A stretch of 64,000 bases of DNA from Amoebophrya sp. A120 (lineage: Eukaryota > Protista > Dinoflagellata): the NCBI GenBank assembly GCA_905178155.1, contig CAJINV010000001.1, forward strand, positions 357,643 through 421,642, read 5' to 3'. Made by a program: the position numbers and the translations under genes. Numbering within the stretch: position 1 is the first letter of the stretch; every line of letters starts with the position of its first letter. This document shows positions 1 through 53,692 of the stretch, piece by piece. The notes under the pieces were generated by a model that did not search any database, was not told where the DNA came from, and saw only the letters and a list, made by a program, of their open reading frames with translations.

Positions 1-2191
1 GCAAAAACTTTGTCCCAGCGAGCTGGGCGTTCGTGAACAGGATCGCAGACACCACATGATAAATCGCGACACCGACGAGCGACCAGGGAGTTGGAAACAG
101 TAGGTCGTCGTCTTTGCGCCTCACCAGCTCTAGGGCCCGATCAATCTCCGCCAGATGTGCGGAATAGAACATTTCGTCGAAGTACTCTTCAATTATTCTG
201 GTACGCCTTTCCAGCAATGCCATGGTTTCGTTCAGCCCCCGCACGAAGGTGGCCCAGGACCTCTCTTCGCTTCCGATAGTTGTATTTTGACTGGCGAAGT
301 GGAAGTCAGAAGTGCTGCTATTATCATTTGGTTGAAAGCGACGCGCGTGCAAAGCGTCCCAAGCTGTGATCGAATTTGAGTAGTACTTCTCGTCCTCGTA
401 CGGCGGGTCATATACGTGCCCAGTGTCGTCACGAGGCGCGGCCCAGGAAACCCAACTGTTACGGGATCGGTCGAGCCTAGAAATTAAATTGTGACGCTCG
501 CCCGAGGTTCCGGAAAGCGGAGAGCGTTTGATCACCTCCGCGTACTTGCGCGCCAGCTCCACTGCCCGGCGCTCGTCGACTACGATGACAAACTTCTCCC
601 CCGCTTCAGTTCTGTTCAGCAGGGCCTCCTGTTCGGCGTCGTAGGAATCAGTGGGCACGCACTTTGGGTGCAGTAGTTCTCGGGGTTCCGCGCCTACTTC
701 GCGAGCTGCCGCAAGCGCAAGAACATCGCCATCCGCTGGAAAAATAGTTGGCGACGTCAACGAGCTTTTCCAGCTGCAATATTCACGACCTCCGGATTGT
801 TCTACCGCAGTGCTGTTACGCGTCGCATTTTCGCGGCTGTTATGATGATGTCCTGTGCTGTCTTCAGCTCCGCTCCGCGTCTCCTCACCGGGACCGGAGG
901 GCGGCCTCCTCTTCATTTGACAAGGACAGTCAGTCTGCCACTGCAAAACCTGCAGACTGATCGCTGAGCTTTTCGGTTTTTGTCGCGCGAGCTCTGCGTT
1001 GGCTTGCCGTAGGCGCTCCGCAATCTATGGCGATGGCAGAAACTTTTTGCTCAAAAACTTTTTTTTTTTGGCATGTAAATCACCCATCGTGAGAACTAGA
1101 TATGTTTTTTGTGGCGAATATGTCACCCATGAAAAAGGCGGATTTATATGTTTGTTGAGCTAGCTAGTCTGAAGGCAGGAACAGGTCGACGCTGGACGTC
1201 GGTTGCGTCGCGGATTCGGAACCGAATCCGTGGCCACATGAGCACCGGGGACCACCTTCCTCCTGCCTTCAGACTAGCTAGTTACATAGTATGCCGCCGT
1301 AGTGCCTTTATGTAAACAAGACCTGCCGGTAGCAGGTGGCACATACATAGCTTATGGCAAAATCATATGTGGAAAAAAAAAAAGTTTTTGAGCAAAAAGT
1401 TTCTGCCATCGCCATACAATCGGATTCGCGCTGATTACGTAGTCGCAGATCTCGTTCTTGCATATGGAAGACGAAAGCGCCGCACCCGATGAATTTCGTT
1501 TTTCGCCAAAAAGTACACCACTCAACTCCATCGGAGAAGAATCTCCTGCAATCTGTAGTTCTTCTCCTTCTTCGCTTCGGCTTCCATAATTGGGAGCAGC
1601 CGTACTAGAGGGCAGCATTCTCCCGGCTTGTACTCTTCCCGAAGATGTCTGACCTGCTCCGCCTTGCTGCTGCAAACCTGCTACACTTGTTGTCGCCTCG
1701 CCATGATTGTCGCCGGAGGTATGATCGACGGAGTGCGGCGACCATGCGCAGCCCACGTCTTGGTCTACGTCTTGGTCCTTCTCTTCCCGATTCGCATTTT
1801 CTGGAGCAGCAGAAGGCCCCCAAGTCGTTGAGCCGCCTGTGCCAACCGCGACACGCAGAAAACTTTGCGGAGTGGAGATCGGCAGCAGAGTTGCAAGAAC
1901 TGCAGGACCACCTTGCTCCTCGTGCCCCGGAGACGTTTCAGCCTCGTCACTGTCTGATGGATGTTCGATTTCTGCAGCTTCCCACGTCGATGAGGAGAAC
2001 GTGGCCGGTAAAGAACTGCTCGACTTCATCTGCGCGGCTCTTTCCTGCCTTACAGCAGCTTCAGCGAGATACCAACACTTCTGTGTCATCTCCAGTGGAA
2101 AAAGTACCAAAGTCGTGCGCTGCAAGAGACATAGAACGCCATAGTGCATGGAGGAGCGCGAGCCGCCCGCCCGTCTAAAAAACGAAATCAT
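1..2191 (-). CDS. Array gene copy D, 5' part (runs off window), hypothetical protein
   Basis: ATG at 2191. The ORF is joined in frame across element 1026-1416 to AERLRQANAEL. Region 1-~520 is diverged from copy B. Confidence 0.75.
1026..1416 (-). mobile_element. Introner element (TATGG-type), 391 bp, acting as intron
   Basis: ~40-bp TIR TATGGCGATGGCAGAAACTTTTTGCTCAAAAACTTTTTT. TSD CAATC at 1021-1025 and 1417-1421. TSD plus TIR create GT (1417)...AG (1025) on the minus strand, and removal is in frame. Confidence 0.93.
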
Positions 2192-3075
2192 CTCTCTGGA
2201 ACAATGGTCGCCGCACTTCTAGTTGCGACTAAAGCTGCACCGTACCAATTGGGATCCAGACGGACGTGAAGATATTGAAGATGGCATGATAGATTGTCAG
2301 TCTTATTTGTGTTTGTTTCTGATGCCCTTGCATAAGAAACGTCCTCGCGGACTACGACCCGCCGGTCGTGTCTATCCTTGGACGTTTGCAGCACCTTCGT
2401 GGTCACGACTATGCTAGTAATGCTCCTGCTTCCACAATGGCTATAATCTGAATATGTACGGAAAGACGACCCGAAGCGGATGACCTCGAACAAGCCTGCC
2501 TCCGACTCGTATCAGAAAATTTGCGCTCCATGTTCCTCTCTCGAAGAGCCTCGCACACGACGAGTGATCCGAGATCCTGCCACAAACGATCAACCTCGCA
2601 GCGATGGCGCGTAACTTACGATCGTTGTACTGTTGTAAAATAATCATAATTGAACAAGAAAACGAGGACTACTACATGCCAGCACGTAATATGACGAAAA
2701 ATATCACGAAAATATCACGAGGCTCCTGAAGAAATATCACGAAAATCCCCCTGGTCCCTATGCGCCTGATCTTCATACAAGATGCCCGACGAAATTCTAG
2801 CTGCTCGAATGAAAGTATCCAGAAGGATACTTCCGATAAACCCCTTCAAACTGCGGCGCATTAACGAGGAACAGCATTCACGACTTCGTTGCGTATCACA
2901 GCGCGGATTCGCGGAAAAATTGACGCAGCTGCAACATGCTCCGTTCTTGCGGATTTTTCCAGCTGCACAAGAACTGCTGCCCATTTTCTCAACAAGAGAA
3001 GACGACGGATCATGGAACAGTGTTGCTTGTGCGGCCGCTGCGGCTGATGAGTGAGGGTGACAACTACGACTAGAG

Positions 3076-4557
3076 CTAGTTGGTGGAAAAATCAATGGCG
3101 TGTCGAGTGTACCAGTCTGCGAGCAAATCGGCAGGAATCCACTCCTTTGCGCCGCGATTTGTAAAGAGGCTGAGCTTATCAAATGTAAAAGTGTCTGGGT
3201 CTGGAAGGATGTAACCTGTGATGCACATTTCAGAACACACAAAAAACTCTCATGCATAGGTAGCAAAAGCTGCCCATTTTCTGTCATTAAAGTGGGGGAC
3301 TTGTCATGCGGGTTCGGCATTGCGGAAGCTTCTCGAAACCTGTGATGCTAGAGCTTCCATGCCAGACCTTCTGTGTCATGCAGAAACAGCATGACTCTTC
3401 CAGACCCAGACATTTTTGCATTTGATAGAGCTCTTTGTCGGCCTCGGCAACCGTCATCACGACCAGCTTCAACGGCTCGGGTCGTTCCTCTGGCACCTCT
3501 TCTAGGTGGTCTCTGAACATTTCTGTTTCAACTTGCGGTGTCGAGTTTCGAAAATTATCCGCAGTGGTGTTCTTCTTATTACCTGCACGGCTGGGTAGCT
3601 TCCTGCTGTTGGCGACCAGGCGAACCGCCGCCCGGACGGCGTCTCTCACCTGCGCTACGTCCCCCTCGTCGACGGCCAGTATGCCGCGAATGTTCAATCG
3701 GTCGCTCCACTTTTCACAACGCATTAGCATGTGCATCTGGGTGTGGAAAAGCCGGCGCCACCAGCCCCTCAGGCCCGCGCCGAGCAATTCAAACCGCTCG
3801 CGGAAACTATTGCGCTGCGTCTCCGAACGGCTCGTCACGTCGACCACATCGGCCACAACCAAAACCGGCAGACGCCCCGGGCCGAGAGCGTGCTCGAAGT
3901 TCGCGACGGCGGTCGCATTCGCCTCGCGTTGGCTCCAACCGAACCAGCCCTTCCACCCGTGTGGAAGCCGGCCCGCGTTTTTGAGGGAGTACTCCTTCGC
4001 GGCGTCCCACATGCGCCCACTCTCTCCCTCGCCCGTGCACTCGTTCATTCGAAAAGAAAGGGGCGCCGCTGCGACAACGGTCGGGCGCACGTCTGTAGTC
4101 AGGTTGAACCATTGTTTTTGGGCGTCTGCCATCTGCACCCGCTCACCACCAAAGAAGTCGATGCCGTTTTATGCAAATAAAAATGAACTAGTGTTACTGC
4201 AGTTCTTACACACTGTGAGGCAGCAAGACACACAACCTCTGTCATGCCCGAAGTGCTTGATGCGCATCTCTTTCCATGCTGGCCAGGGGCGATTTCACTT
4301 ATGACCTCCGCATTGGTTGGTAATTGCAAGTTTGCTTTGGCACAGCGCAAATTTGTGTTGCCAAGTGTGACTGCAGCACTACTCTTTGTTCGCTTTCTCT
4401 TTGATACCTTGCGCTGCAAAAACATTGTCCCAGCGAGCTGGGCGTTCGTGAACAGGATCGCAGACACCACATGATAAATCGCGACACCGACGAGCGACCA
4501 GGGAGTTGGAAACAGTAGGTCGTCGTCTGTGCGCCTCACCAGCTCTAGGGCCCGATC
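3076..4557 (-). CDS. Array gene copy C, 3' part (5' part lost in gap)
   Basis: Identical to copy B. Removing elements 4170-4406 and 3177-3427 gives ...QRKGIDFFGGERVQMAD...DKELSLFTNRGAKEWIPADLLADWYTRHAIDFSTN*. Confidence 0.75.
3177..3427 (-). mobile_element. Introner element (TATCAAAT family), 251 bp
   Basis: TIR TATCAAATGTAAAAGTGTCTGGGTCTGGAAG / CTTCCAGACCCAGACATTTTTGCATTTGATA. Perfect TSD GAGCT. Removal restores the frame. Confidence 0.92.
4170..4406 (-). mobile_element. Degenerate introner element, 237 bp
   Basis: TAT...ATA ends with decayed TIR (shared GAAC and CTGCAGT blocks). Degenerate TSD CGTTT/CCTTG. Removal of the element plus 5 nt joins the 429-aa and 283-aa ORF frames. Confidence 0.75.
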
Positions 4558-4994
4558 NNNNNNNNNNNNNNNNNNNNNNNNNNNNNNNNNNNNNNNNNNN
4601 NNNNNNNNNNNNNNNNNNNNNNNNNNNNNNNNNNNNNNNNNNNNNNNNNNNNNNNNNNNNNNNNNNNNNNNNNNNNNNNNNNNNNNNNNNNNNNNNNNNN
4701 NNNNNNNNNNNNNNNNNNNNNNNNNNNNNNNNNNNNNNNNNNNNNNNNNNNNNNNNNNNNNNNNNNNNNNNNNNNNNNNNNNNNNNNNNNNNNNNNNNNN
4801 NNNNNNNNNNNNNNNNNNNNNNNNNNNNNNNNNNNNNNNNNNNNNNNNNNNNNNNNNNNNNNNNNNNNNNNNNNNNNNNNNNNNNNNNNNNNNNNNNNNN
4901 NNNNNNNNNNNNNNNNNNNNNNNNNNNNNNNNNNNNNNNNNNNNNNNNNNNNNNNNNNNNNNNNNNNNNNNNNNNNNNNNNNNNNNNNNNNNNN
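4558..4994. other. Assembly gap (437 N)
   Basis: Run of N. Confidence 1.
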
Positions 4995-5582
4995 GAACAA
5001 GCCTGCCTCCGACTCGTATCAGAAAATTTGCGCTCCATGTTCCTCTCTCGAAGAGCCTCGCACACGACGAGTGATCCGAGATCCTGCCACAAACGATCAA
5101 CCTCGCAGCGATGGCGCGTAACTTACGATCGTTGTACTGTTGTAAAATAATCATAATTGAACAAGAAAACGAGGACTACTACATGCCAGCACGTAATATG
5201 ACGAAAAATATCACGAAAATATCACGAGGCTCCTGAAGAAATATCACGAAAATCCCCCTGGTCCCTATGCGCCTGATCTTCATACAAGATGCCCGACGAA
5301 ATTCTAGCTGCTCGAATGAAAGTATCCAGAAGGATACTTCCGATAAACCCCTTCAAACTGCGGCGCATTAACGAGGAACAGCATTCACGACTTCGTTGCG
5401 TATCACAGCGCGGATTCGCGGAAAAATTGACGCAGCTGCAACATGCTCCGTTCTTGCGGATTTTTCCAGCTGCACAAGAACTGCTGCCCATTTTCTCAAC
5501 AAGAGAAGACGACGGATCATGGAACAGTGTTGCTTGTGCGGCCGCTGCGGCTGATGAGTGAGGGTGACAACTACGACTAGAG

Positions 5583-8500
5583 CTAGTTGGTGGAAAAATC
5601 AATGGCGTGTCGAGTGTACCAGTCTGCGAGCAAATCGGCAGGAATCCACTCCTTTGCGCCGCGATTTGTAAAGAGGCTGAGCTTATCAAATGTAAAAGTG
5701 TCTGGGTCTGGAAGGATGTAACCTGTGATGCACATTTCAGAACACACAAAAAACTCTCATGCATAGGTAGCAAAAGCTGCCCATTTTCTGTCATTAAAGT
5801 GGGGGACTTGTCATGCGGGTTCGGCATTGCGGAAGCTTCTCGAAACCTGTGATGCTAGAGCTTCCATGCCAGACCTTCTGTGTCATGCAGAAACAGCATG
5901 ACTCTTCCAGACCCAGACATTTTTGCATTTGATAGAGCTCTTTGTCGGCCTCGGCAACCGTCATCACGACCAGCTTCAACGGCTCGGGTCGTTCCTCTGG
6001 CACCTCTTCTAGGTGGTCTCTGAACATTTCTGTTTCAACTTGCGGTGTCGAGTTTCGAAAATTATCCGCAGTGGTGTTCTTCTTATTACCTGCACGGCTG
6101 GGTAGCTTCCTGCTGTTGGCGACCAGGCGAACCGCCGCCCGGACGGCGTCTCTCACCTGCGCTACGTCCCCCTCGTCGACGGCCAGTATGCCGCGAATGT
6201 TCAATCGGTCGCTCCACTTTTCACAACGCATTAGCATGTGCATCTGGGTGTGGAAAAGCCGGCGCCACCAGCCCCTCAGGCCCGCGCCGAGCAATTCAAA
6301 CCGCTCGCGGAAACTATTGCGCTGCGTCTCCGAACGGCTCGTCACGTCGACCACATCGGCCACAACCAAAACCGGCAGACGCCCCGGGCCGAGAGCGTGC
6401 TCGAAGTTCGCGACGGCGGTCGCATTCGCCTCGCGTTGGCTCCAACCGAACCAGCCCTTCCACCCGTGTGGAAGCCGGCCCGCGTTTTTGAGGGAGTACT
6501 CCTTCGCGGCGTCCCACATGCGCCCACTCTCTCCCTCGCCCGTGCACTCGTTCATTCGAAAAGAAAGGGGCGCCGCTGCGACAACGGTCGGGCGCACGTC
6601 TGTAGTCAGGTTGAACCATTGTTTTTGGGCGTCTGCCATCTGCACCCGCTCACCACCAAAGAAGTCGATGCCGTTTTATGCAAATAAAAATGAACTAGTG
6701 TTACTGCAGTTCTTACACACTGTGAGGCAGCAAGACACACAACCTCTGTCATGCCCGAAGTGCTTGATGCGCATCTCTTTCCATGCTGGCCAGGGGCGAT
6801 TTCACTTATGACCTCCGCATTGGTTGGTAATTGCAAGTTTGCTTTGGCACAGCGCAAATTTGTGTTGCCAAGTGTGACTGCAGCACTACTCTTTGTTCGC
6901 TTTCTCTTTGATACCTTGCGCTGCAAAAACATTGTCCCAGCGAGCTGGGCGTTCGTGAACAGGATCGCAGACACCACATGATAAATCGCGACACCGACGA
7001 GCGACCAGGGAGTTGGAAACAGTAGGTCGTCGTCTGTGCGCCTCACCAGCTCTAGGGCCCGATCGATCTCCGGCAGAGATGCGGAATGGAACATTTCGTC
7101 CAAGTACTCGTCATTCATTCTGGTACACCTTTCCAGCAATGCCGCGCTTTCGTTCACCACCCGGGCCAAGTCGGTTGCGTTCACCGCCCACCGGAACATG
7201 GTGGCCCAGGACCTCTCTTCGCTTCCGATAGTTGTATTTTGAGCGGCGAAGTGGAAGTCAGTGCTGCTATTATCGTTTGGTTGAAAGCGGCGCGCGTGCA
7301 AAGCGTCCCAAGATGTGATCGAATTTGCGTAGTACTTCTCGTCCTCGTACGGCGGGTCATATACGTGCCCAGTATCGTGACGACGCGCGGCCCAGGAAAC
7401 CCATTTGTTATCGCTTCGGTCGAGCCTAGAAATGAAATTTTGACGCGGGAGAGAGTCTCCGCCAAGTGGCGAGCGTTTGATCACCTCCGCGTACTTGCGC
7501 GCCAGCTCCACTGCCCGGCGCTCGTCGACTACGATGACAAACTTCTCCCCCGCTTCAGTTCTGTTCAGCAGGGCCTCCTGTTCGGCGTCGTAGGAATCAG
7601 TGGGCACGCACTTTGGTTGCAGTAGTTCTCGGGGTTCCGCGCCTACTTCGCGAGCTGCCGCAAGCGCAAGAACATCGCCATCCGCTGGAAAAATAGTTGG
7701 CGACGTCAACGAGCTTTTCCAGCTGCAATATTCACGACCTCCGGATTGTTCTACCGCAGTGCTGTTACGCGTCGCATTTTCGCGGCTGTTATGATGATGT
7801 CCTGTGCTGTCTTCAGCTCCGCTCCGCGTCTCCTCACCGGGACCGGAGGGCGGCCTCCTCTTCATTTGACAAGGACAGTCAGTCTGCCACTGCAAAACCT
7901 GCAGACTGATCGCTGAGCTTTTCGGTTTTTGTCGCGCGAGCTCTGCGTTGGCTTGCCGTAGGCGCTCCGCAATCTATGGCGATGGCAGAAACTTTTTGCT
8001 CAAAAACTTTTTTTTTTTGGCATGTAAATCACCCATCGTGAGAACTAGATATGTTTTTTGTGGCGAATATGTCACCCATGAAAAAGGCGGATTTATATGT
8101 TTGTTGAGCTAGCTAGTCTGAAGGCAGGAACAGGTCGACGCTGGACGTCGGTTGCGTCGCGGATTCGGAACCGAATCCGTGGCCACATGAGCACCGGGGA
8201 CCACCTTCCTCCTGCCTTCAGACTAGCTAGTTACATAGTATGCCGCCGTAGTGCCTTTATGTAAACAAGACCTGCCGGTAGCAGGTGGCACATACATAGC
8301 TTATGGCAAAATCATATGTGGAAAAAAAAAAAGTTTTTGAGCAAAAAGTTTCTGCCATCGCCATACAATCGGATTCGCGCTGATTACGTAGTCGCAGATC
8401 TCGTTCTTGCATATGGAAGACGAAAGCGCCGCACCCGATGAATTTCGTTTTTCGCCAAAAAGTACACCACTCAACTCCATCGGAGAAGAATCTCCTGCAA

Positions 8501-9140
8501 TCTGTAGTTCTTCTCCTTCTTCGCTTCGGCTTCCATAATTGGGAGCAGCCGTACTAGAGGGCAGCATTCTCCCGGCTTGTACTCTTCCCGAAGATGTCTG
8601 ACCTGCTCCGCCTTGCTGCTGCAAACCTGCTACACTTGTTGTCGCCTCGCCATGATTGTCGCCGGAGGTATGATCGACGGAGTGCGGCGACCATGCGCAG
8701 CCCACGTCTTGGTCTACGTCTTGGTCCTTCTCTTCCCGATTCGCATTTTCTGGAGCAGCAGAAGGCCCCCAAGTCGTTGAGCCGCCTGTGCCAACCGCGA
8801 CACGCAGAAAACTTTGCGGAGTGGAGATCGGCAGCAGAGTTGCAAGAACTGCAGGACCACCTTGCTCCTCGTGCCCCGGAGACGTTTCAGCCTCGTCACT
8901 GTCTGATGGATGTTCGATTTCTGCAGCTTCCCACGTCGATGAGGAGAACGTGGCCGGTAAAGAACTGCTCGACTTCATCTGCGCGGCTCTTTCCTGCCTT
9001 ACAGCAGCTTCAGCGAGATACCAACACTTCTGTGTCATCTCCAGTGGAAAAAGTACCAAAGTCGTGCGCTGCAAGAGACATAGAACGCCATAGTGCATGG
9101 AGGAGCGCGAGCCGCCCGCCCGTCTAAAAAACGAAATCAT
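5583..9140 (-). CDS. Array gene copy B, complete, 4 exons, ~890 aa hypothetical protein
   Basis: Exons ~9140-8367, ~7973-6914, ~6671-5935, ~5678-5583 join in frame after removing three TIR/TSD elements. Stop TAG at 5583-5585. Hydrophobic N-terminal segment, low-complexity linker, then an ordered-looking C-terminal region. Confidence 0.82.
5684..5934 (-). mobile_element. Introner element (TATCAAAT family), copy in unit B
   Basis: Same as 3177-3427, TSD GAGCT. Confidence 0.92.
6677..6913 (-). mobile_element. Degenerate introner element, copy in unit B
   Basis: Same as 4170-4406. Confidence 0.75.
7975..8365 (-). mobile_element. Introner element (TATGG-type), copy in unit B
   Basis: Same as 1026-1416, TSD CAATC. 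Confidence 0.93.
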
Positions 9141-10024
9141 CTCTCTGGAACAATGGTCGCCGCACTTCTAGTTGCGACTAAAGCTGCACCGTACCAATTG
9201 GGATCCAGACGGACGTGAAGATATTGAAGATGGCATGATAGATTGTCAGTCTTATTTGTGTTTGTTTCTGATGCCCTTGCATAAGAAACGTCCTCGCGGA
9301 CTACGACCCGCCGGTCGTGTCTATCCTTGGACGTTTGCAGCACCTTCGTGGTCACGACTATGCTAGTAATGCTCCTGCTTCCACAATGGCTATAATCTGA
9401 ATATGTACGGAAAGACGACCCGAAGCGGATGACCTCGAACAAGCCTGCCTCCGACTCGTATCAGAAAATTTGCGCTCCATGTTCCTCTCTCGAAGAGCCT
9501 CGCACACGACGAGTGATCCGAGATCCTGCCACAAACGATCAACCTCGCAGCGATGGCGCGTAACTTACGATCGTTGTACTGTTGTAAAATAATCATAATT
9601 GAACAAGAAAACGAGGACTACTACATGCCAGCACGTAATATGACGAAAAATATCACGAAAATATCACGAGGCTCCTGAAGAAATATCACGAAAATCCCCC
9701 TGGTCCCTATGCGCCTGATCTTCATACAAGATGCCCGACGAAATTCTAGCTGCTCGAATGAAAGTATCCAGAAGGATACTTCCGATAAACCCCTTCAAAC
9801 TGCGGCGCATTAACGAGGAACAGCATTCACGACTTCGTTGCGTATCACAGCGCGGATTCGCGGAAAAATTGACGCAGCTGCAACATGCTCCGTTCTTGCG
9901 GATTTTTCCAGCTGCACAAGAACTGCTGCCCATTTTCTCAACAAGAGAAGACGACGGATCATGGAACAGTGTTGCTTGTGCGGCCGCTGCGGCTGATGAG
10001 TGAGGGTGACAACTACGACTAGAG

Positions 10025-13000
10025 CTAGTTGGTGGAAAAATCAATGGCGTGTCGAGTGTACCAGTCTGCGAGCAAATCGGCAGGAATCCACTCCTTTGCG
10101 CCGCGATTTGTAAAGAGGCTGAGCTTATCAAATGTAAAAGTGTCTGGGTCTGGAAGGATGTAACCTGTGATGCACATTTCAGAACACACAAAAAACTCTC
10201 ATGCATAGGTAGCAAAAGCTGCCCATTTTCTGTCATTAAAGTGGGGGACTTGTCATGCGGGTTCGGCATTGCGGAAGCTTCTCGAAACCTGTGATGCTAG
10301 AGCTTCCATGCCAGACCTTCTGTGTCATGCAGAAACAGCATGACTCTTCCAGACCCAGACATTTTTGCATTTGATAGAGCTCTTTGTCGGCCTCGGCAAC
10401 CGTCATCACGACCAGCTTCAACGGCTCGGGTCGTTCCTCTGGCACCTCTTCTAGGTGGTCTCTGAACATTTCTGTTTCAACTTGCGGTGTCGAGTTTCGA
10501 AAATTATCCGCAGTGGTGTTCTTCTTATTACCTGCACGGCTGGGTAGCTTCCTGCTGTTGGCGACCAGGCGAACCGCCGCCCGGACGGCGTCTCTCACCT
10601 GCGCTACGTCCCCCTCGTCGACGGCCAGTATGCCGCGAATGTTCAATCGGTCGCTCCACTTTTCACAACGCATTAGCATGTGCATCTGGGTGTGGAAAAG
10701 CCGGCGCCACCAGCCCCTCAGGCCCGCGCCGAGCAATTCAAACCGCTCGCGGAAACTATTGCGCTGCGTCTCCGAACGGCTCGTCACGTCGACCACATCG
10801 GCCACAACCAAAACCGGCAGACGCCCCGGGCCGAGAGCGTGCTCGAAGTTCGCGACGGCGGTCGCATTCGCCTCGCGTTGGCTCCAACCGAACCAGCCCT
10901 TCCACCCGTGTGGAAGCCGGCCCGCGTTTTTGAGGGAGTACTCCTTCGCGGCGTCCCACATGCGCCCACTCTCTCCCTCGCCCGTGCACTCGTTCATTCG
11001 AAAAGAAAGGGGCGCCGCTGCGACAACGGTCGGGCGCACGTCTGTAGTCAGGTTGAACCATTGTTTTTGGGCGTCTGCCATCTGCACCCGCTCACCACCA
11101 AAGAAGTCGATGCCGTTTTATGCAAATAAAAATGAACTAGTGTTACTGCAGTTCTTACACACTGTGAGGCAGCAAGACACACAACCTCTGTCATGCCCGA
11201 AGTGCTTGATGCGCATCTCTTTCCATGCTGGCCAGGGGCGATTTCACTTATGACCTCCGCATTGGTTGGTAATTGCAAGTTTGCTTTGGCACAGCGCAAA
11301 TTTGTGTTGCCAAGTGTGACTGCAGCACTACTCTTTGTTCGCTTTCTCTTTGATACCTTGCGCTGCAAAAACATTGTCCCAGCGAGCTGGGCGTTCGTGA
11401 ACAGGATCGCAGACACCACATGATAAATCGCGACACCGACGAGCGACCAGGGAGTTGGAAACAGTAGGTCGTCGTCTGTGCGCCTCACCAGCTCTAGGGC
11501 CCGATCGATCTCCGGCAGAGATGCGGAATGGAACATTTCGTCCAAGTACTCGTCATTCATTCTGGTACACCTTTCCAGCAATGCCGCGCTTTCGTTCACC
11601 ACCCGGGCCAAGTCGGTTGCGTTCACCGCCCACCGGAACATGGTGGCCCAGGACCTCTCTTCGCTTCCGATAGTTGTATTTTGAGCGGCGAAGTGGAAGT
11701 CAGTGCTGCTATTATCGTTTGGTTGAAAGCGGCGCGCGTGCAAAGCGTCCCAAGATGTGATCGAATTTGCGTAGTACTTCTCGTCCTCGTACGGCGGGTC
11801 ATATACGTGCCCAGTATCGTGACGACGCGCGGCCCAGGAAACCCATTTGTTATCGCTTCGGTCGAGCCTAGAAATGAAATTTTGACGCGGGAGAGAGTCT
11901 CCGCCAAGTGGCGAGCGTTTGATCACCTCCGCGTACTTGCGCGCCAGCTCCACTGCCCGGCGCTCGTCGACTACGATGACAAACTTCTCCCCCGCTTCAG
12001 TTCTGTTCAGCAGGGCCTCCTGTTCGGCGTCGTAGGAATCAGTGGGCACGCACTTTGGTTGCAGTAGTTCTCGGGGTTCCGCGCCTACTTCGCGAGCTGC
12101 CGCAAGCGCAAGAAAATCGCCATCCGCTGGAAAAACACTTGGCGAGGTTAACGTCATTTTCCAGCCGCTGCAATATAATTCACGACCTCCGGATTGTTCT
12201 ACCGCAGTGCTGTTACGCGTCTCATTTTCGCGGCTGTTATGATGATGTCCTGTGTCTACAGCTCCGCTCCGCGTCTCTTCATCGCCGGAACCGGAGGGCA
12301 GCGGCCTCCTCTTCATTTGACAAGGACAGTCAGTCTGCCACTGCAAAACCTGCAGACTGATCGCTGAGCCTTTCGGTTTTTGTCGCGCGAGCAGCTCTGC
12401 GTTGGCTTGCCGTAGGCGCTCCGCCATCGGATTCGTATGGAAGCGTCAGGTTTGAAATTCTCAAAGTTGAAAAAAAAATCTAGGTATGGCGTTTTATATA
12501 GAACTCTTAATACAAAACTAACATAAGTATCTATTTGGCGTGTTTATCTAGCTAGTTCAAAACTGCGCCCGCGGATGCGTCACGCATCCGCGGGCGCAGT
12601 TTTGAGCTAGCTAGTTAATCATCTGATAAACGCCACATGCATGCACGCCATAAGTAGTGTATTATTAAGGTACCTTAAAATTTTTTTTCAACTTTGAGCA
12701 TTTCAATCCTGACATGCCCATAATTGGCGCTGATTACGTAGTCGCAGATCTCGTTCTTGCATATGGAAGACGAAAGCGCCGCACCCGATGAATTCCGTTT
12801 TTCGCCAAAAACTACACCACTCAACTCCATCAGCGAAGAATCTCCTGCAATCTGTAGTTCTTCTCCTTCTTCGCTTCCATGAGGAGCAGCCGTACTTCCC
12901 GACGGCAACATCCTCCCGGCTTGATGTACAACTCTTCCCGATGTCCGACCTACTCCGCCTTGCTGCTGCAAACCTGCTACGCTTGTTGTCGCCTCGCCAT

Positions 13001-13490
13001 GATCGTCGCCGGAGGCATGATCGACGGAGTGCAGCGACTCGTAGCCCAAGTCTTGGTCCACGTCTTGGTCCTTCTCTTCCCGATTCGCATTTTCTGGAGC
13101 AGCAGGAGGCTCCCAAGTCGTTGAGCCGCCTGGGCCAACCGCGACCCGCAGAAAACTTTGCGGAGTGGAGATCGGCAGCGGAATTGCAACTGCAGGACCA
13201 CCTTGCTCTTCTTGCGCCGGAAAAGTTTCAGCCTCATCACTGTCTGATGGCTGTTCGATCTCTCCTGCGCCTTCCCGCGTCGATGAGGAGAACGTGGCTG
13301 GTAAAGAACTGCTCGACTTCTGCGCGGCTCTTTCCTGCCGTACAGCAGCTTCAGCGAGATACCAACACTTCTGTTTCATCTCCAGTGGAAAAAGTACCAA
13401 ACTCGTACGTTGAAACAGACGTAGTAGAAAGCCATAGTACAACATGGAGAAGCGCGAGCAGCCGCCCGCTCGTCTAAAAAACAAAATCAT
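10025..13490 (-). CDS. Array gene copy A, complete, 4 exons, diverged 5' part
   Basis: The 271-aa and 459-aa ORFs are joined in frame (ISANPMAERL) by removing 12436-12722. Downstream introns are as in copy B. Stop at 10025. Confidence 0.82.
10126..10376 (-). mobile_element. Introner element (TATCAAAT family), copy in unit A
   Basis: Same as 3177-3427. Confidence 0.92.
11119..11355 (-). mobile_element. Degenerate introner element, copy in unit A
   Basis: Same as 4170-4406. Confidence 0.75.
12436..12722 (-). mobile_element. Introner element (TATGG-type, distinct from 1026-1416), 287 bp
   Basis: Imperfect ~43-bp TIR TATGGAAGCGTCAGGTTTGAAATTCTCAAAGTTGAAAAAAAAAT. TSD ATTCG/ATTGG. Absent from the paralogous copies. 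Central 67-bp palindrome. Confidence 0.9.
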
Positions 13491-13940
13491 CTCTCTGGAA
13501 CAATGGTCGCCGCACTTCTAGTTGCGACTAAAGCTGCACTGTACCAGTTGGGATCCAGACGGACGTGATGATGATGAAGAAGATGGCATGACTGTCAGTT
13601 TTATTTGTGTTTCTGATGGCCTTACACACGTAACGTCCTCCTCGCGGACTACGACTAGTGTGTCTATCCTTGGACGCTTACAGAACCTTAGTGGTCACGA
13701 CTATGCTAGTAATGCTCCTGCTTCCACAATGGCTCTAATCTGAATAAGTACGGAAAGACGACCCGAAGCGGACGACCTGGAACAAGCCTGCCTCCGACTC
13801 GTATCAGAAAATTTGCGCTCCATGTTCCTCTCTCGAAAGGCCTCGCAAACACCGAGTGATTCCAGATGATCCTGCCACAAACGATTAACCTCGTAGCGAT
13901 GGCGCGTAACTAACGATCGTTGTCGATACTGTTGTAAAAT

Positions 13941-14429
13941 GGGGCCCCCTAATGGGGAACCCTAAACCCTGAAACCTAAACCAAACCCGGGGAGATCCCG
14001 CCGCGACGGATGCCCATCTTGTCAAGTGCGATCCCTACATGCATAGTTTTTTGGAAAAGGAAAGCAAAAAGAGAAGGATGAAGCAAAAAAAATTGAGCGA
14101 GGCGAGCGAATCTCTCGGCGGCCTATGAAGGACAATCCAGTGGCCAACCGGAAGTCCAACACAGTAGGGCTTCAGCTGCGCTGGCTCTAAACCTGTACAG
14201 AGTACAGACCTACGTACGTATGCGCCACACCTTCTCTCATCCGAAGTCGGGACGCATCCGAACTCTAAGCAAAGCGAGAAAACGATAAGGCAAGCGAGGA
14301 GCGATCCAACTCGGGCATGCGAATCAGGTAGAAGAGAGAAACCGAAAAAGCGAGCTTTTCCGAGGACCGACAAAGCATCTCATCACTGTGCAAAAACTCA
14401 TATCCCTCATCACTGTGCAAAAACTCATA
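13941..14429. mobile_element. 489-bp retroposon-like insertion with 18-bp TSD
   Basis: Flanked by TCGATACTGTTGTAAAAT at 13923-13940 and 14430-14447. The paralogous site in the other units is empty. Telomere-like CCCTAAA repeats near one end and a 27-bp tandem duplication at the other. Confidence 0.8.
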
Positions 14430-14948
14430 TCGATACTGTTGTAAAATAATCATAATCAAACAAGAAAACGAAGACAACTACATGCCAGCACGTAATATCA
14501 CGAAATATCACGAAAATATCACGAGGCTCCTGACGAAATATCACGAAAATCCCCCTGGTCCCTATGCTCCTGATCTTCCTGCAAGATGCCCGACGAAATT
14601 CTAGCTGCTCGAAAGAAAGTATCCAGAAGGATACTTCCGATAAACCCCTTCAAACTGCGGCGCATTAACGAGGAACAGCATTCACGACTTCGTTGCGTAT
14701 CACAGCGCGGATTCGCGGAAACATCGGGTTTGAAGAGGTACTTAGCGACCACCAAAACGTAAAATATACTCAGCACGACTTCCACTCAAAAGATGTGGAG
14801 CTATCGCTTCCGGAAAAGAAAAAATAGAAGTAGAACTGACAAATGCCCGAGCTGTGTCTTTCTTGTCCCATGATCTTCAAATGCATATCTTATACCATCT
14901 TCATTTTTCTTGAGACGAAACTAAAGTGCGTCCCTGCAGTCGTGGCCC

Positions 14949-16416
14949 TCATAATTGTTCCCCCGTATCCCCGCCAATGACCTCTGTCCACATCTTCTCG
15001 CAGAATTCCGTGGCGGCGGTCTCGCGGTTTTCCCAGTCCGCCTTCATCGCCGACTCCAAAGTGGTCACTAGCCCGTCGCAGGTTCCCTTTGCGTCCGCCG
15101 GAGCTCCCGCGCACATCTTCTTGCCGTAGTCTGGGCCGGATTTCGCTTTGAACTGCAAATAATTTGAAGCAAGTGCTTTGTTTCTCATATTTGTTATGGG
15201 CACCATTGTGTTTTTTTTTTCAATGCTGTCTCACTAGAACCCGAGTGCCCAGATCATGTGCAGCTCCTTCGACAAATGAGCAGACTCGTATCTCTGATGT
15301 CTACCTCGAACTAGAAGACAAGCATCACCGTCATCATTTATCCTGCACTTGGGGGGGACGTGCGGAGGGGTTGATGGGGTTCAAGTTCACAATGAATAAA
15401 ACAAAGCTTTGTAACTCGTACCAACGACGGCCTGAGCACCCCATTTTTGCAGTCGACGTTGAAGAGAATCTGAAACACGCTTTTGAAGGCCTCTGCCTCG
15501 TTAATCTGCACTTCCTGGCACTTGCCCGCCCAGTCCTCCCACACCTCGTTTACAATGTCGCACTTGACCCAGAAAAACATGTTGTGCCCGGCCCCGTAGC
15601 TGCCTCCGTCCCGGCCGTCCAACGAGTACCCCTCAGCGCACTGGTATTGTGCGCCTTTCACCGGGTATACTGAGTAAAAACGTCCCCATACCATACTTAG
15701 TCAAGATCCGCTAGACAAATCAACCAGCTATGGTTGTTTCGCATGACAGGTTTGTCCTGGTAGTGTAAACCTGTTTAGCTAGTTCCGAAGCAGCACAGAT
15801 CTAGCATATCATGCTGATTCTAGCATCACAAATTCCAAAACACGACTCGAAGATGCAGATGGTTCTCATGAGGCTCCGCATGAGGAACTTTTTTGGCATG
15901 CAAATTTGCATCACAACTCTGGGGTGGGAACGTTTTGACTTCGGATACCGGGTCCGTGATGTTCGCAAACACCGCGTTGTGATTCTCCGGTCGGGGTGCC
16001 GGGCACCGGGGTTTCGGCACGCACCCGTACTCCTCGATGACCGTTTTGAAGTACCCCGCTTCCTGGCAAACCATCTTGGGCGGCTCGCCGACAAAGCCCT
16101 TCTGGCAGGCCAGTTGCAGTTCGTACCCCGGGTCAAACTCGTCCTTCCGCGTGTCGTCGCGGGGAATGTACGTGTTCTTGGGGAAAACGGTCGGCATAAT
16201 GCACTTGACGTCCTTGGTACTATGATGTGTCTCTTCGCGGCGACGGGCATTTGATATTTTTGAACTTGTACCGCTACGCTTGGAACTACCGAAAAACAAC
16301 CGGGAAGTCGACACAGAGGAGGTTCCAGAAGTCCTCGCAGAAACCTCCTGCGTCACAGCGAGGAACACCGTGAGGCGTCCAATTCTCCCCCGCGTCTCCC
16401 GACGCCGCCCCACCAT
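14949..16416 (-). CDS. Probable secreted protein with two Sushi/CCP-like modules and a C-terminal saposin-like helical module
   Basis: Motifs C..P.FPKN...F.PG...LACQKGFVG.P.KMVC and CPAPRPENH...YQCAEGYSLDG...C....W.....C. Introns 15666-15947 (introner) and ~15153-15439 (GT-AG) restore the frame. The start codon is uncertain. Confidence 0.65.
15666..15947 (-). mobile_element. Introner element, 282 bp, non-canonical intron
   Basis: TIR TATACTGAGTAAAAACGTCCCCA vs TATCCGAAGTCAAAACGTTCCCA. Perfect TSD CCGGG. Removal gives ITDPVKGAQYQC. Confidence 0.88.
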
Positions 16417-17113: not shown

Positions 17114-20100
17114 TTATGCATATTTCGCGTCTTTCGTGACAAACCACAAATTTAGCACAAACACCACGTACAGGACAGCGAAGACCGTTGTCGTGTTGCT
17201 ATCCAGCGTGTACTCTCGCACGGCAGCCCAGCCCACCAACAGGAGTAGCGTCCCCGCCATCCAGATCGTGCCGCACTCCAGGCCCGGGGAACGCAAGGGG
17301 ATCGTCACGACGCTTCCACTACTGGCGAAGACGTAGCACTTGAGGAACCAGGGCAGAGCCAACGCCACAAATGCATTCTGCACGTTTGACCCCAGCGCGT
17401 TCGCGATCGCCATGTTGCTCTTCCCGTCCTTGTATCAAATGCAAAAGTGTCTGGGTCTGGAAGATTCTGAGACTTGCCATGCATGTTTTGTATGACCCAG
17501 AATGTCTGTACTGCACGACCTAGCATCACAGATTTTTAGAGGGCTTCCTGATGCCTATTCCGCATTACAAATGCCCTCTCCACGTAGCACAGTCTGGGCT
17601 CCTCTTCCTGGTCATGCAATACAGATTTTTTTGGAGTCCAAAGATAGCATGACAAGTTTGGATCCTTCCAAACCCAGACATTTTTACAGTTGATACCTTG
17701 CTCGCCAAAAAAGAGGCCCACACGTTCGGCAAGGAGGTTCCCGCGGCACAGAGCGTGGCCCCCAGGAAGCCGACGGGGATTTGGTACGCTTTGGCCAGGT
17801 GCTGGACGGTGGAAACCATCAGGTTGGAGAAAATCCCGAGCCACAGCATGGACAACAAAAAGCACCAGTACCACCGGTGCTGGCGACTCGTCTCCTTCGG
17901 GTCGCACCAGCTCATGGTGATATCGTACAGAAAGTTGATCGGCGCTTCAAACACGAGCAGTAACTTCCGCGCGGTGCCGATGGTCTCCTCCTGCAAGTCG
18001 TTGGTTAAGTCCATCAAAGCGTCATTTGACATCACGCTCGCCCGCCGCCGCAACTTGGTGCTGGCGACGCGAGGAAGCATCTGCGGACTGGATTCGGTCG
18101 AGGAAGCGATCGACGACCGCAAAATCGGTACTACTGGTGGATTGTTATTCCTGTAACCGCTCAACACCTGGATTCGCTCCGGCGGGGCGTGTGCTGGTCT
18201 ACTGTTGCTATTCATTTTGTAGGTCGTAGTACCATTGTTGTATCTACTTTTTTCTTCAAGCGAAAGAAAGTTGTCGCCGCTCCCTGCGGTCGTGGTCCCT
18301 GAGGTAGTTATTTGCTGGCGACGTGCAAGTTGTGAAGAAGAACCGGGCCGGTTGTAGTAGTTACCGTCATCGCTACTGGCCGTAGTTCCGGATGTCGCGA
18401 GATTGGGGCCCTGCTGCATGTAGATCGGGAGATTGTACTTGAACGGTCCACCGCTGGTGCCCTGAGTTTGCGATGGTCTAGCTGGAAGTGGTTGTTGTGC
18501 GGTCATCTCAATACGAGCGGAAGTGGACCCCAGATGAACGTCGTGTTCTGACGGTGCCGAACCCCCTGCTCCACCAACAAATTGGCCCGCACCCTGCAGC
18601 TGCTGCCCCGGTGTAGTTGTAGTAATACTTCCCGGGCCCCCGATCTGACCCCCGATGCCGAAGGTCATCTGCGTTCTGCGCAGCTTGGCCTGCTCCTCCA
18701 ACTCGCACTCCACTGGCAACAGGTCGCGAATCAACCGCTCCTTGTCCTCGAAGCGCGCGAACTCCAGCACTAGCACGACTTTCTCGCCGTAGCTCCCTCG
18801 CACCTGCACTTGCACCTTACGGCTGCTGGGGTCCGCGTCTTTGAGGCAAATAATGTCATCGGAAGAAACCCCGGTGGTTTGGTGCCGTGCGTACGTCTTC
18901 GTATACTTTTTCGCCTGTTTCTTCGGACTCTGACTACCCGCTTGGTTGTGGTTGTTGTTTCTTTCCGTGTTCGGACTGATTTTTTCTGCTCCAGGAAAAA
19001 ACTGCTCCGGGGGAGGGGCCGTCTGATTGTATCGGTTGTACGGCTGAACATTATTTATTGCTGCCGTCGACAGGTTCTTATTTCCGCCATAATTGCTCTG
19101 TTCCGTGCTGGTGCGCGAAAATCCACCAGACAGCTGCTTTTGAAGGAGCGGCTGTTGCAAGGGATGATGTTTCGTAACCTTATTACTCTGTCGCTGTTGT
19201 CCACCACCAGTACCAGCCAAAGCCTGATACAGCATGCCGCCCTCGGTGGCGGTTCCAATACTGCTTCGCATCGTTCCGTCAGAGGACTCTGCTGACTGGC
19301 TCAGCTGCTTCTCCTTAAGATTGTAAAAACCTTGATTTTCCTGCTTTGCCGCTACTTCGAAGGGAACACTTATCCCGTTCGCTGCTCCTGGATAGGTACT
19401 GGTGTGGTGCAACATTGCGACGTGGTCACCACCACCACTAGCCTGGTAAGCCTCTATGCGCGGCATGTCTGGGATGTCGTCACTGTCCTTCCGTGAAGAG
19501 GCGGGCAGCGACGGGCTCCGGCGCTGGATCACACCAGTCGCATTGTCTTGCTTCCACACCCCACCAGGTCTGGTGCCATTCTGCGCAAGAAATGGCTTGT
19601 CGAAGTGCGCAGGACCTCCGGTCCACTTATTGTTCTGGTCCATCTGCGATTTGAGTTTCAGCTGTAAGCCGGTGATGAAAATCTTGCCGTCCTTCCGCAC
19701 GAGCAGGTGGTCGTGGAACCGACTGTCGTGGGAATCGATCATCCGATTCCGCCGGATCACCTTCACCCGCACGCGCGCGACCTCTGCGCCGTCCCGCAGC
19801 ATTTTGGGCGGGACTTGCTGCATCAAGGATTCTTGCCCGAATTCCGGCGAGGCCACGACGTGCTTCGCCCGTTGCAGCGGGCTGCTGTCGGTGCTACCAC
19901 CGCTCGTCGCCCCGCCGATGGAAGAGGGCGGCGGCCGAAGATACAGGGTGTTGCTGTAGTTGCTCTTGCTGTCGGCCGTGCTCTGGGATGAACTGCCGAA
20001 AAGCAATGGCGCAGTTAACGGAGCTACGGTGGCCGCGGTCGTCCTTTCCGATGGCGCTTGCTGTAGTCCAGCTGCCGGTTGGCTGCTGTAGGTTGAAGTT

Positions 20101-21839
20101 CTTGACGCGCGAGAAAGTGGGAGCTGCGGCAAAGGTGAATTCTTCACACTACTTCTTCGGATGGACGGCAACTGCAATGTGCTGAACGCTCCTCCGAGCG
20201 GAGGAGATGATGAATTCGTCTGCGCAATTATTTGTTCCCCGACTGCTGCTGCAGGAACTAAAGGAGGTTTGTTTTCCTTGTCTTGTTCCGTGAAAATTTC
20301 GCTCTGTTTCTGTTCCGGCGAGGCAGCTATTCCGAACAAGTTGTCGATGTCCGAGAGACCGGGGCGGTTCGCGGATTCCTGTCGGTTCTGCGCGAATGTG
20401 ACGGGGTCCTCGATGCTGCTGTCTACTGAGGCCTGGATGAACGATCCCTGCCGGCTGTCGTCCTTGCTGTTTAGCTCCTGCCTGTCGAACAATTCCTTAA
20501 ATTTCGCTTCCTTTTCCTGTTGCACATCAGTCGCGGTAGTTGTGACACCTGCGCGTTCACCTGCTCGCGCAGAAGCTGCGGAATTGTTGTTCGCTGCGCT
20601 CCCAGCATTCGCGTTCGACGTCGTCCCTAGAGCGAAATAGTTGAAGGCGGAGTCCTCGTTTGTTCCTCCCGCCGCCCCGGGTACAACGGCCAACGCTCCG
20701 CTCACATCTTGCGAGAGTGTCGGCGCGAGCACGAGCGTATCGAAGGATCCCGGGATGAAGGGCGCGGACGAGGTGAGTTGCTCGTTGATCTCCGTGATCT
20801 TGCTCAATTGCTTCGCGCGGAATTGTTCGAGACCACCCAACTGGTCTCCTCCGGCGGATGCTGGTCCTTCGGCGGAGGCAGTTCTGGAGCCGGCGTTGAG
20901 AATCTCCTCTTCCAGTTCCGCATTGTCGTCCTCCTCCGTGGTATCGTCCTCTGGGAAAAAATACGCCGTTGAGCCCACGCAAACCGCGTACAAAATCGCG
21001 CAGCTAAGCAAGACCCCGCTGTCGACTGCGCCCACTTCTCCCTTGAAGAAGAGATAAGCTAGTAGCACGATGGAGAGGGCGTAGAAGCCGCAATCGCGGC
21101 GAAAGGAGACCACCGAGAGCTCCAGGGGCATCTCCGGGCACGCGTACACCGCCGCGGCCACGATGGCCAGCAGGTTGAACACCTGCGTGCCGACCACCTG
21201 CGTGACCCCGACGTCCGAGGGAATCAGGAAGAGCGATACCAAATTCGTGATCAGCTCCGGGCCGTTGCACCCCAGAGCGAGGAGCGTCGCCCCGGCCACG
21301 TCCTCGGGAATGTCAAATTCCTCTACCACCACCTCGATGGCGGGCACCAGCCACTCGTCCGTGACGGAAACTTGGGCGTAGAAAATGTAAATCACGACCA
21401 GCCACCAAATCCAGCGCCCGTCCTCCTCGACGATCTTGATTTTCTCCTCCACTTCCTCATCCGTTCTTGCGCGGTTGTCGCTGTCTTCAGCCGGAGTTGA
21501 GGATGTCAAGAGGAGCTGCGCAAGGTCCTGCTGTTCCGAAGTCGTGGACGACTGTGATTGCTTTTCTGTGCTGTCATCAACATCTTCATCTGCTCCGGAG
21601 ATCTTGGCGCTTGTTGCAATAAGGAGAACTGCTGGGGGTCGCTTATTTGGTTCTACTACTTCAGTCGCGTTTGCAAGGGCTACGCTTTGACTTTCAGCAG
21701 GACCTGACGTTGCACCGCTGCTCGTGTCCGGATTTTTCATGGTCGCCGACGCGGCTCTCGCATGCTCCGGGCAGAGCACGAGTATGTTGCTAGCCGATGC
21801 CTGGATCAGCAGCAGAAACTTTCGTACAGCAGACAGCAT
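17114..21839 (-). CDS. Cation/Ca2+ exchanger, NCKX (SLC24)-like, with very long cytosolic loop
   Basis: Alpha-1 repeat DVAGATLLALGCNGPEL...GTQVFNLL. Alpha-2 repeat GATLCAAGTSLPN...ASKDGKSNMAIANALGSNVQN, reconstituted across the introner at 17433-17695. Confidence 0.92.
17433..17695 (-). mobile_element. Introner element (TATCAAAT family), 263 bp
   Basis: TIR TATCAAATGCAAAAGTGTCTGGGTCTGGAAG. Perfect TSD CCTTG. Forms a GT...AG intron that splits the conserved alpha-2 motif. Confidence 0.95.
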
Positions 21840-23031
21840 GTCCTCGTGGCTTGTTTACCAGTTCCCGGCGCTGACGGAGTGACGTCACAAGATCGCTTCC
21901 ACCTTGTTCCCAGGCTGGACTGTTGCTCGCGTGGTCCTTATGTTTCTTTCATGTTGAAGATTCATCTTGTCGCGTAGGCGTACTATTCTCAATACTTTGA
22001 ATAAACCTTGTCATACGATGAGGAAAATGAAAAGCCAAAATTTCCTGTAGTTTTGTTGTAAATAGAAGCTGTTTCCTGTTGTTCAGAAATTGCTCAAACG
22101 CTCGCTTTTCTTGTACATATTCTGCAGGAGCGGCTAGGGCATCGATACAAGTCAATGCTTGTCGAAAAATATAAACGGTTTACGGTTTTAGATTTCATAT
22201 ATCTTCTTTATGTTCAGGTGATTCGTCGAAGTCCGATCGATGAGCTTGTAGCTTTGAGCAGACCGAATTTCAAGATTTGGTAGTGATCTCAGGAAGGAAA
22301 GCCCGAACTGGCATTCGAGAAGCTTTTCTTGAGCTCCTCAGGTTGGAGCGTCACCGAGGATGCGGAAGCGCAAAGCTGTTGACCGATCCGTGCCTTAAAT
22401 GCCACATTCATCACATACATCTGATTTCAGCCTGACGGTGAAACAGAAACTTCCACATTACTTATTACATCGATCGGCGCACACCTGAAAGCAGCAACTA
22501 TTCTTGTTTTTCCGGCGCATGAACATCAGCTGTCGCAGCAGCGTGAAAGAATACACGACGACGCTGTCACGGCACTCTTCGTCCGCGAGACCTCCCAGCT
22601 GCAGTCGTGTGTACGAATGATGAATGAAAATCTTCTCATTGTCATTCTCCTGGCTAATATGATTTCTTTCCTTAGATTTTAGAGCGCAGTCAGTGGGTAA
22701 TGTCGTTGCGTGTGCGTAGAAATATCAAGAAGATGAATGGTCCTGCCTCAGCATGAACCACACGAAGTTGGCATTATCTATGTAGTTTCGTCGTTAGATT
22801 TAGGACGCGATCGTACAAGATCTTGATTGACACACATGACGCAGAAGAGGCGATAGTTGAGGACAGCACAGGACCGGCGTAGTTGCAACGACGTCGATTG
22901 AAGCTGAAGGACCAGCGTTTTTGTGAAACTTCATCACATAAAAATTCTTTAGATTTCATCGCGACCAGAGCTCCTTCGGGAAACAAGTCGGAGCTCTTGA
23001 AGCGCCTCCCGTCCTGCTTGCAGCCTCTGCC

Positions 23032-40756: not shown

Positions 40757-41967
40757 CTTCCGCTGCTAGTGAGTTGTTGTTGGGATTCTGATGGAATATA
40801 GCGCTGGCTTAGGTCAACAAGCAAAATGGGGGACAATTACGCTTAGGTTACTTACTTGCTTAGGCAGGATATTACAATTACATTCAATCAGAGACAGAGT
40901 GTCAGAAGATCAAGATTTTGATTTAGATTTACAAATACTTCGGGTTCGTAAAATACAATTCAGCACAAGCTTCTTCGGTTCGTAAAATACAAATTTAGCA
41001 CTCAATTCGACCACAGATTCGATCTGCCGCACCAGGAAGGCGGCTCCTTTCGGAGTAAAATGACCATTCGCGGATATTTTTATGGGGGGGAACCAAAAGG
41101 GAAACGACGCACTGGGTCGAAGCAATACGATGCGGATGCCATCTGATAGATACTATCACGAGGAGCGCCAAAAGAGCGTAGAACTTCTACGTCTGCACAT
41201 TTAAAGCCATGAAGAAACGACGAGGCTTTGCACGATCACGAGAGGACGAAGTGAGAGAACAAAATGACACGGTGACTTTTCAAATTATGGAACGAAACCG
41301 ATTCCGAACGCAAAAAGCGATTGGTGCACTCACCTTGCTGACTTTATCTTGAAGAAGATGTAGATAGGAAGACGACGGACGAAATAAGCTGACGAGATGG
41401 CAGAGGACTTTATTGCTTCGCTGTCGTGACCAAGTACGATGTACATGAACGACGATCGCATACTAGAGAATTCTGCAATGGGACGGGTCAACCGAGAGCG
41501 AACAAAACAAGAACGGCGACTAGCACAAGTTGTGTTCACTGCACGAGGACACCTGCAGCTTGGCTTTCATGATTCTTGGCGAAACCGGGAGGAAAGAATG
41601 AGAACTATCTGAGAACGCCAGAACATCGGGATCGAGCTACACAAGTACAACTATTGGGTGCAGCATCAAATTAACATTAAGTCAATTCCTTTACAATTAC
41701 AAATCTGAAAGAATAGGATGTTACGTCAACGTCGCGTTGAAGATTTTGGTATGGCGATTGGATAATCCCTGTCGTTGGGTGCGAACTCTAAGTGGTCGGT
41801 GGAATGGGTATTAAACTAAGTATAACTCCTATTGCTGAGCAGGGGCAGTTAAAATTTTGCAACAGGGAGGAAAATCGTCCACGCCGAATATTTTTTTGAC
41901 AACTTTCATACTTTCCAAAGCTGTCGCGATTTGGGAAGTCGCCCAACGCCCAACGGCCAACGGCCAA

Positions 41968-42972: not shown

Positions 42973-43144
42973 GCAACGCAAAATATTCTGCAGGGTCGCT
43001 CGGATCTGCGCGATCGCGTGGCACCTCCTTACTGCAACCCCGAAGGAAAAAAAAACTTCAGCTGATCGCGCGTCCGAGGAGAGCAACGCGATCCACCAGG
43101 CAGCTGAAGACCGAAGGCGGCGAGCGCTGTACATGGATTGCCAC

Positions 43145-53373: not shown

Positions 53374-53692
53374 CTTCGTGTCCGGCGGTGTGTATTGTGT
53401 GCAAGGACAACGGGCGCTGAAAATTCTGTAAGAAAAAAAAAAAGTAAGAGGACTACGTAAAAAAAAACTTCTCGTAAAAACGCCTTATTTGAACTTGGAA
53501 TAGGATAAATGCAACAATTTTCTCTCAACGAGATAAGCCACTTTGGGTTAGAAATGTAGGCCATCGACGGGAGTCCGCCCGTGAACAAGAAGAGAAAAGT
53601 CGGTTTCCGGGCCTGCAGGAGACAGATAGAAAATGTGATAGGGGGCACATTTTTGCACTAGCATGATGGATACACTACAAAACCAAATGACA

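Follow-up and report, generated by a model that had tools for sequence, protein, structure and literature searches.

The closest described relatives of the elements considered here are the introners of Amoebophrya, whose strain A120 carries 29,850 repeated introns in 1,954 families, as given in the part of the paper available to us (Farhat et al. 2021, PMC7789003). According to the same partial text, these introners have TAT inverted ends, direct repeats of 3-5 nt at their borders, a hairpin and a removal that does not follow GT-AG, in all of which they resemble the elements described below, and U1 snRNA was not detected in Amoebophrya (PMC7789003). Nearby introns in related genes are usually ascribed to sliding or to annotation error. 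In fungi, new introner-like elements lying at distances of 1, 3 and 8 nt from the position of another intron were interpreted, in the sections at hand, as parallel gain and not as sliding (Collemare et al. 2015, PMC4457414); for Micromonas introners, and for the Daphnia gains cited there, the accessible text describes insertions into homologous codons in unmatched phase and suggests hot spots, the cases being too few for statistics (Simmons et al. 2015, PMC4540971). The MITE-type introners of Aureococcus and Polarella, as far as the excerpted sources go, are likewise similar to the present elements in inverted ends, target duplications and DNA-transposon origin (PMC9860276; bioRxiv 10.1101/2020.10.14.339549), and insertion biases of introners are covered in the first of these two texts. 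Does the nearness of two introns in sister genes then record one insertion or two, and, if two, what does it say about the site?

The window, i.e. the whole stretch of 64,000 nt from strain A120 that was analysed, contains copies of one gene, designated A, B and D, each interrupted by an element of the introner type (Table 1). We consider it probable that two related introners of Amoebophrya type were inserted independently into two real copies of this gene, the one in copy A being likely spliced out exactly. Much of the original prediction is borne out by the letters themselves: copies B and D carry a 391-bp element with a CAATC duplication (coordinates and the repeats on both sides agree), copy A carries a different element of 287 bp and lacks that of B (coordinates and sequence agree), and both elements have TATGG ends, A/T tracts and a core bounded by CTAGCTAG. 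Two details had to be amended. The duplication of element A, proposed as ATTCG, reads so on the left and ATTGG on the right (4/5 match), a synonymous mismatch (Ala is encoded by GCG in B and by GCC in A); and the reconstructed 12-nt empty site is literally found in B/D only (1417-1428, 8366-8377), copy A having CCATC, not CAATC. The sequence to the right of B and D is CAATCGGATTCG, and element A is placed after the ATTCG of the same stretch; the two target sites start 7 nt apart, and copies B and D in turn are without the element of A. The predicted folds of elements A and D reach z = -12.3 and z = -13.3, respectively, with a predicted hairpin that joins the borders. A pattern describing the arm motifs matches only six places in the 64 kb, which are these arms (shuffled mean 0.01), the pattern itself having been derived from the six arms that it matches.

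Table 1. Positions of the elements, their target sites and the gene copies in the window
Feature	Position	Strand	Remarks
Element A	12436..12722	.	287-nt TATGG…CCATA introner; imperfect terminal inverted repeats, 37/44
Element A core	12541-12621		Palindromic; bounded by CTAGCTAG
Left target-site copy of element A	12431..12435	+	ATTCG; at least the last two letters leave with the intron
Right target-site copy of element A	12723..12727	+	ATTGG; retained in mRNA
Empty counterpart in copy A of B's target site	12424..12428	+	CCATC; Met vs Ile in B
Element B	1026..1416	.	391-nt TATGG…CCATA; perfect 44-nt inverted repeats (44/44)
CAATC duplication flanking element B	1021-1025, 1417-1421		Perfect
Element D	7975..8365	.	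391 nt, equal to element B; CAATC on both sides; probably assembly duplicate
Old degenerate TAT…ATA element	11119..11355	.	237 nt; duplication 3/5; skipped as 242 nt
TATCAA-family element	10126..10376 (also 3177-3427, 5684-5934)	.	251 nt, GAGCT duplicated; length of skip 256 nt
Gene copy A, exon 1	12723..13490	-	Border can shift by at most 3 nt
Gene copy A, exon 2	11356..12430	-	
Gene copy A, exon 3	10377..11113	-	
Gene copy A, exon 4 to stop	10025..10120	-	891 codons in total
Gene copy B	1..2191	-	Exon 1, element B, most of exon 2; remainder beyond the window
Copy D and flanks	4995..11506	.	A-identical to 7672, B-unit-identical from 7618
Assembly gap	4558..4994		437 N

How many of these copies are real? 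Positions 669-4557 are identical to 7618-11506 (3,889 nt) and positions 4995-7672 to 9437-12114 (2,678 nt), and the two identity stretches overlap at 7618-7672, which leaves copy D without a private letter, an exact chimera of A and B. In run X1, taken as probable DNA from its behaviour, B/D-specific contigs have depths of 37.1, 38.1 and 46 (mean 40.4, n = 3 among the contigs listed) and A-specific contigs of 34.5-44.3 (mean 38.9, n = 5 among the contigs listed); these means leave out the shared contigs, namely one common to A and D (49), another present in all three copies (70.3) and a third that is partly shared (61.5), and part of exon 3 has a depth of 39.7 though it is triplicated in the assembly, all on the understanding that contig depth is not equal to copy number. 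Identity blocks and X1 depth fit one B-type copy, against the earlier view of B and D as separate copies. The locus likely holds two real gene copies, and copy D is probably an assembly artefact, the alternative being a very recent unequal crossover; in either case B and D represent one insertion, so that two insertion events have to be explained and not three. The whole of 669-11506 is likely a misassembled tandem array, with exons 3-4 in three identical copies, a run of N and the chimeric D, and a remnant at 14434-14724, which resembles the 3' flank of the gene at 96%, may come from a further copy. The real pair falls below the class of 185 tandem duplicates with at least 95% protein identity that the available text gives for A120 (PMC7789003).

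Unspliced, the frame of copy A stops at codon 280. Contigs of runs X2, X3 and X6, which are probable RNA by a software guess and come from one study (X2 and X3 from one sample), follow A up to 12430 with 0, 0 and 1 other letters, respectively, and then have 155 nt left over; bin depths for X2 and X3 amount to 5 bases before and 101 bases after element A, and a restart at 12723 gives an overlap of exactly 30 nt with the next A-type contig at 12848. From the piece lengths and bin depths we infer a skip of 292 nt, comprising element A and one duplication and restoring the frame; element A is thus likely spliced exactly, as a non-canonical intron. The mismatch between its duplications confines the cut to four registers (TA..AT, TT..AA, AT..GA and AA..CG on the coding strand), none of which is GT-AG, and this limit should be useful for the question of how Amoebophrya splices non-canonical introns. 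An in-frame GT-AG intron of 319 nt around A (12419-12737) was also considered, and was rejected as the contigs reach 12430 and restart at 12723. Run X1 has no joint across element A among the joints listed. No contig contains the spliced junction of B, although contigs do cover B-type exon 1 (at depths of 6.6 and 7.4); in the deposited protein P0001 (887 aa), the B/D junction is that of exact removal and differs from the GT-AG form, which would have 888 aa. On paper, element B/D could also be cut as a 393-nt GT-AG intron (7974-8366), adding one Ile in frame, from which the P0001 model differs. Taken together in a model, a transposase acting in trans (presumed, as none was seen) would make a 5-bp staggered cut into which a non-coding TAT…ATA element would be inserted; pairing of the inverted ends is predicted to bring the two duplications together in the transcript, upon which element and one duplication (292 nt for A) would be removed and the original reading frame would be back.

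The gene carries two further elements. At the older of these the RNA-type contigs halt at 11113 with 122 nt left, which fits a restart at 11356; on a presumed assignment, this element is likely common to the B-type copy. Its ends have decayed and it is still skipped as element plus 5 nt, which suggests that exact removal outlasts repeat decay. At the TATCAA element, runs X2, X3 and X6 have a joint from 10120 to 10377, as does X1; the element is likely absent from the B-type copy, as indicated by a single X1 joint, one side of which is 25 nt long. X1 also has an empty form of the TATCAA site, probably from the other paralog, and its summed depth at the ends of this element, above 100,000, points to a very large family. 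In the window as a whole there are seven element sites, which are the 13 rows of a scan minus three identical repeats (of B and the TATCAA element) and four weak rows (1147-1349, 8096-8298, 24002-24269 and 44800-46107), plus the old element. The elements span 237-391 nt, and their 5-nt repeats are perfect at 4/7 sites, match at 4/5 letters at two and at 3/5 at one, so that the seven sites display the MITE features of shortness, inverted ends and 5-nt duplications; the target sequence starts with C and ends with C or G at 5/7 sites. TAT…ATA elements with perfect 5-bp duplications lie at 15666-15947 (CCGGG) and 17433-17695 (CCTTG), and one at 25049-25316 (duplication CGTCG/CGTTG), with TATGG at one end and TATCAA at the other, connects the two types of end. 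In X1, four contigs from elsewhere in the genome have adjacent elements 24-36 nt apart.

The host is an orphan gene of 887-891 aa; the joined exons indicated by the contigs comprise 891 codons in A and 887 in D. A search with the protein of exon 2 gave 4 matches among 7,992 longer proteins scored and 0 among 7,996 scored proteins of 253-805 aa, the matches being P0001, which agrees with exon 1 of B/D and with exon 2 of D, and three relatives named Amoebophrya sp. A120, at 33-35%. None of these four family proteins has a Pfam match, and the insertion site lies within a block conserved in all four. P0001 follows D to residue 604, has the Lys of B at 605 and then a tail 94% like exon 3 of the window; judged by these letters, the gene model was probably pieced together from more than one copy. 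An Rfam scan of 7900-14500 returned 0 matches. Upstream of copy A, an insert at 13935-14430 contains telomere-like CCCTAAA words and reaches a summed X1 depth of 930, with a 27-nt direct repeat at 14379-14431. Farther along, all long frames between 17565 and 63998 are on the minus strand, in line with the genes in one direction described in the accessible part of PMC7789003. They include a Na/Ca exchanger (17565-21854), a frame of 4,112 codons without Pfam match (28427-40765) and three mutually related frames (44925-47489, 49633-53484 and 55922-59767); 1/18 frames of the window has a Pfam match. An array of about 58 copies of a 17-nt unit at 41990-43648 is followed by about 3 copies of a 146-nt repeat, and the 1.6 kb at 53688-55326, in which inverted arms of 90 nt are 80% complementary and a repeat of 120 nt lies inside, are possibly a larger transposon.

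Could the elements of A and B nevertheless be one orthologous insertion whose borders drifted, or an intron that slid? Both have the TATGG ends and the core motifs, and their global alignment beats 200/200 shuffles, but their arms are alike at only 16/30 and 20/30 letters, their best interior local match is 14 nt and their lengths differ by 104 nt, so that the interiors are unalignable whereas the exons around them are 93-94% alike (52/746 and 60/1,019 aligned letters differ); moreover, two separate target duplications are present. The old, presumably shared element, being alignable, shows how an orthologous element looks at this locus: an X1 variant contig over it has, out of 263, only 1 differing letter and 10 gap letters. 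Membership of different families is indicated by X1 depth as well, which in A's end bins is 8,071-15,361 at 92% likeness vs 122 in A's core, and at 95% likeness 659 and 195 vs 28 and 72 for B's end bins; the ends of A are thus matched by many other X1 contigs, those of B without excess. Drift or sliding is extremely unlikely on this comparison, and the original prediction comes through the end-to-end alignment that could have overturned it. Hardly more credit is due to the idea that copy A or its element was misassembled, for which one may point to a locus otherwise misassembled (N gap, chimeric D): an X1 contig (12395-12581) crosses the left junction of A without mismatch at single-copy depth (44.3), bridging the left junction, the right one being absent among the DNA pieces listed, and the A-type RNA-like contigs join the flanks exactly, so that this check, too, leaves the prediction in place. 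Arm and core motifs put both elements into the same superfamily, which makes related transposases plausible and hence excision with local reinsertion, or replacement through gap repair, conceivable in principle. Yet a hop of one element would keep its sequence, and the elements differ throughout, while for a replacement one meets a difference in sequence, site and duplication alike. From work on P elements, gap-repair replacement is expected to keep site and duplication. That B has a perfect duplication of its own, at a new site, speaks for fresh insertion rather than repair replacement; either course is very improbable, and the excision and local reinsertion of one element, offered originally, has to be given up. 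Independent insertion, which we consider probable, has two gains as its shortest history, and a reading as turnover would require a loss. Such a loss would have occurred if element A had been in the gene before its duplication and had then been lost exactly from the B lineage, by mRNA-templated repair or joining between the duplications, B being inserted 7 nt away thereafter. The mismatched duplication and 37/44 arms of A, next to the perfect ones of B, speak for this order, A's imperfect duplication suggesting that A may be as old as the gene duplication, and B's site reads ATTCG, in a clean single copy. Against it, one event more is needed, no footprint is seen in B, and both arms of A match many other contigs, so that arm asymmetry is probably characteristic of the family and cannot serve as a clock, for which reason the dating of A from arm decay was dropped. 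Loss followed by gain is therefore an unlikely history, if one to keep in view. The search for outgroup DNA came back empty: the A-family arm pattern had 0 matches in metagenome contigs, and an alignment-based search there confirmed 0 of 209 pattern matches; in viral contigs, 50 loci had one match each and none had both arms, which was taken as chance, and the TATCAA pattern had 0 matches.

What, then, is the significance of the 7 nt? Over 2,661 coding bases, B's element would land no more than 7 nt from an A-only element with a probability of 0.58% if there is one such element, or of 1.1% if there are two, the second being the TATCAA element; about 100 informative gene pairs would yield one such case by chance. 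The original prediction of independent hits on a hotspot thus stands for its two different introners at near-identical positions, the hotspot itself being only possible; at 0.6-1.1% per pair, so close a spacing is uncommon, and insertions that are 'independent' may yet not be 'unbiased'. One case cannot decide between chance in an introner-rich genome and a local target preference, and the case would be important only if there is a genome-wide excess of such pairs. Perhaps, within independent insertion, the 12-nt stretch forms a micro-hotspot that would attract the transposase via a hairpin or its likeness to the core. With B's site in the middle of windows of 24 and 30 nt, the empty site ranks in the top 1.2-1.8% for folding, the predicted hairpin has B's target in its loop (CAAT) and A's in a 3-nt bulge (TTC), the site 8-mer CGGATTCG recurs in the core of B and, with one mismatch, in that of A, and words shared with the cores are matched by 0.2-0.3% of windows, compared with 1.2-2.6% for whole-element words. 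However, the fold and word tests were both picked after looking, with A's site in the middle the fold is unremarkable in windows of 24 and 30 nt (20-38%) and ranks at 5-6% in those of 40 nt, and of the five other sites none is in the best 5% of folds at any of four window sizes or has an unusually long word shared with its own element (lowest P 0.06). Such a micro-hotspot is decidedly unlikely. Improbable as well is the broader model in which TAT…ATA introners would be aimed by DNA shape, the loop and the bulge of one core-like hairpin being colonised repeatedly; if it were true, near-position pairs would arise predictably, without sliding and without a splice-site requirement.

Set beside the known systems, element A has the tested features of Amoebophrya introner elements. 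It differs from the published description, as far as the accessible text of PMC7789003 reaches, in inverted ends of 44 nt here vs 8-20 nt there, and the commonest A120 end motif, a descriptive one (TAT, seven letters, at least three A), is not that of elements A and B, whose letters 11-13 are TCA or GCA, but is that of the TATCAA family, with AAA at letters 11-13. Intron positions were compared between strains in that text and are compared between paralogs here. Aureococcus and Polarella introners, in the passages available, recruit GT/GC/GA and AG borders, supplied by the element or by its duplication, and element A has none of these pairs; neither PMC12130899 nor the Polarella preprint has a near-position paralog case in the portions at hand, and the literature searched, subscription papers lying outside it, contains no report of near-position introners between Amoebophrya paralogs. 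The Micromonas comparison was made between isolates, and inverted ends or 5-bp duplications are not shown in the part of PMC4540971 at hand. In the fungal case, as given in the available text of PMC4457414, the partner was an ordinary intron and the species were distant, whereas here each partner can be recognised as an element, the two genes are young paralogs in a single genome, and, unlike there, target duplications fix the sites to the base. Near-position parallel gain is already published for fungi and Micromonas, and the present pair, whose non-orthologous introns are no more than 15 nt from each other, probably adds a clean case from young paralogs, with both sites fixed to the base and occupied by two different elements.
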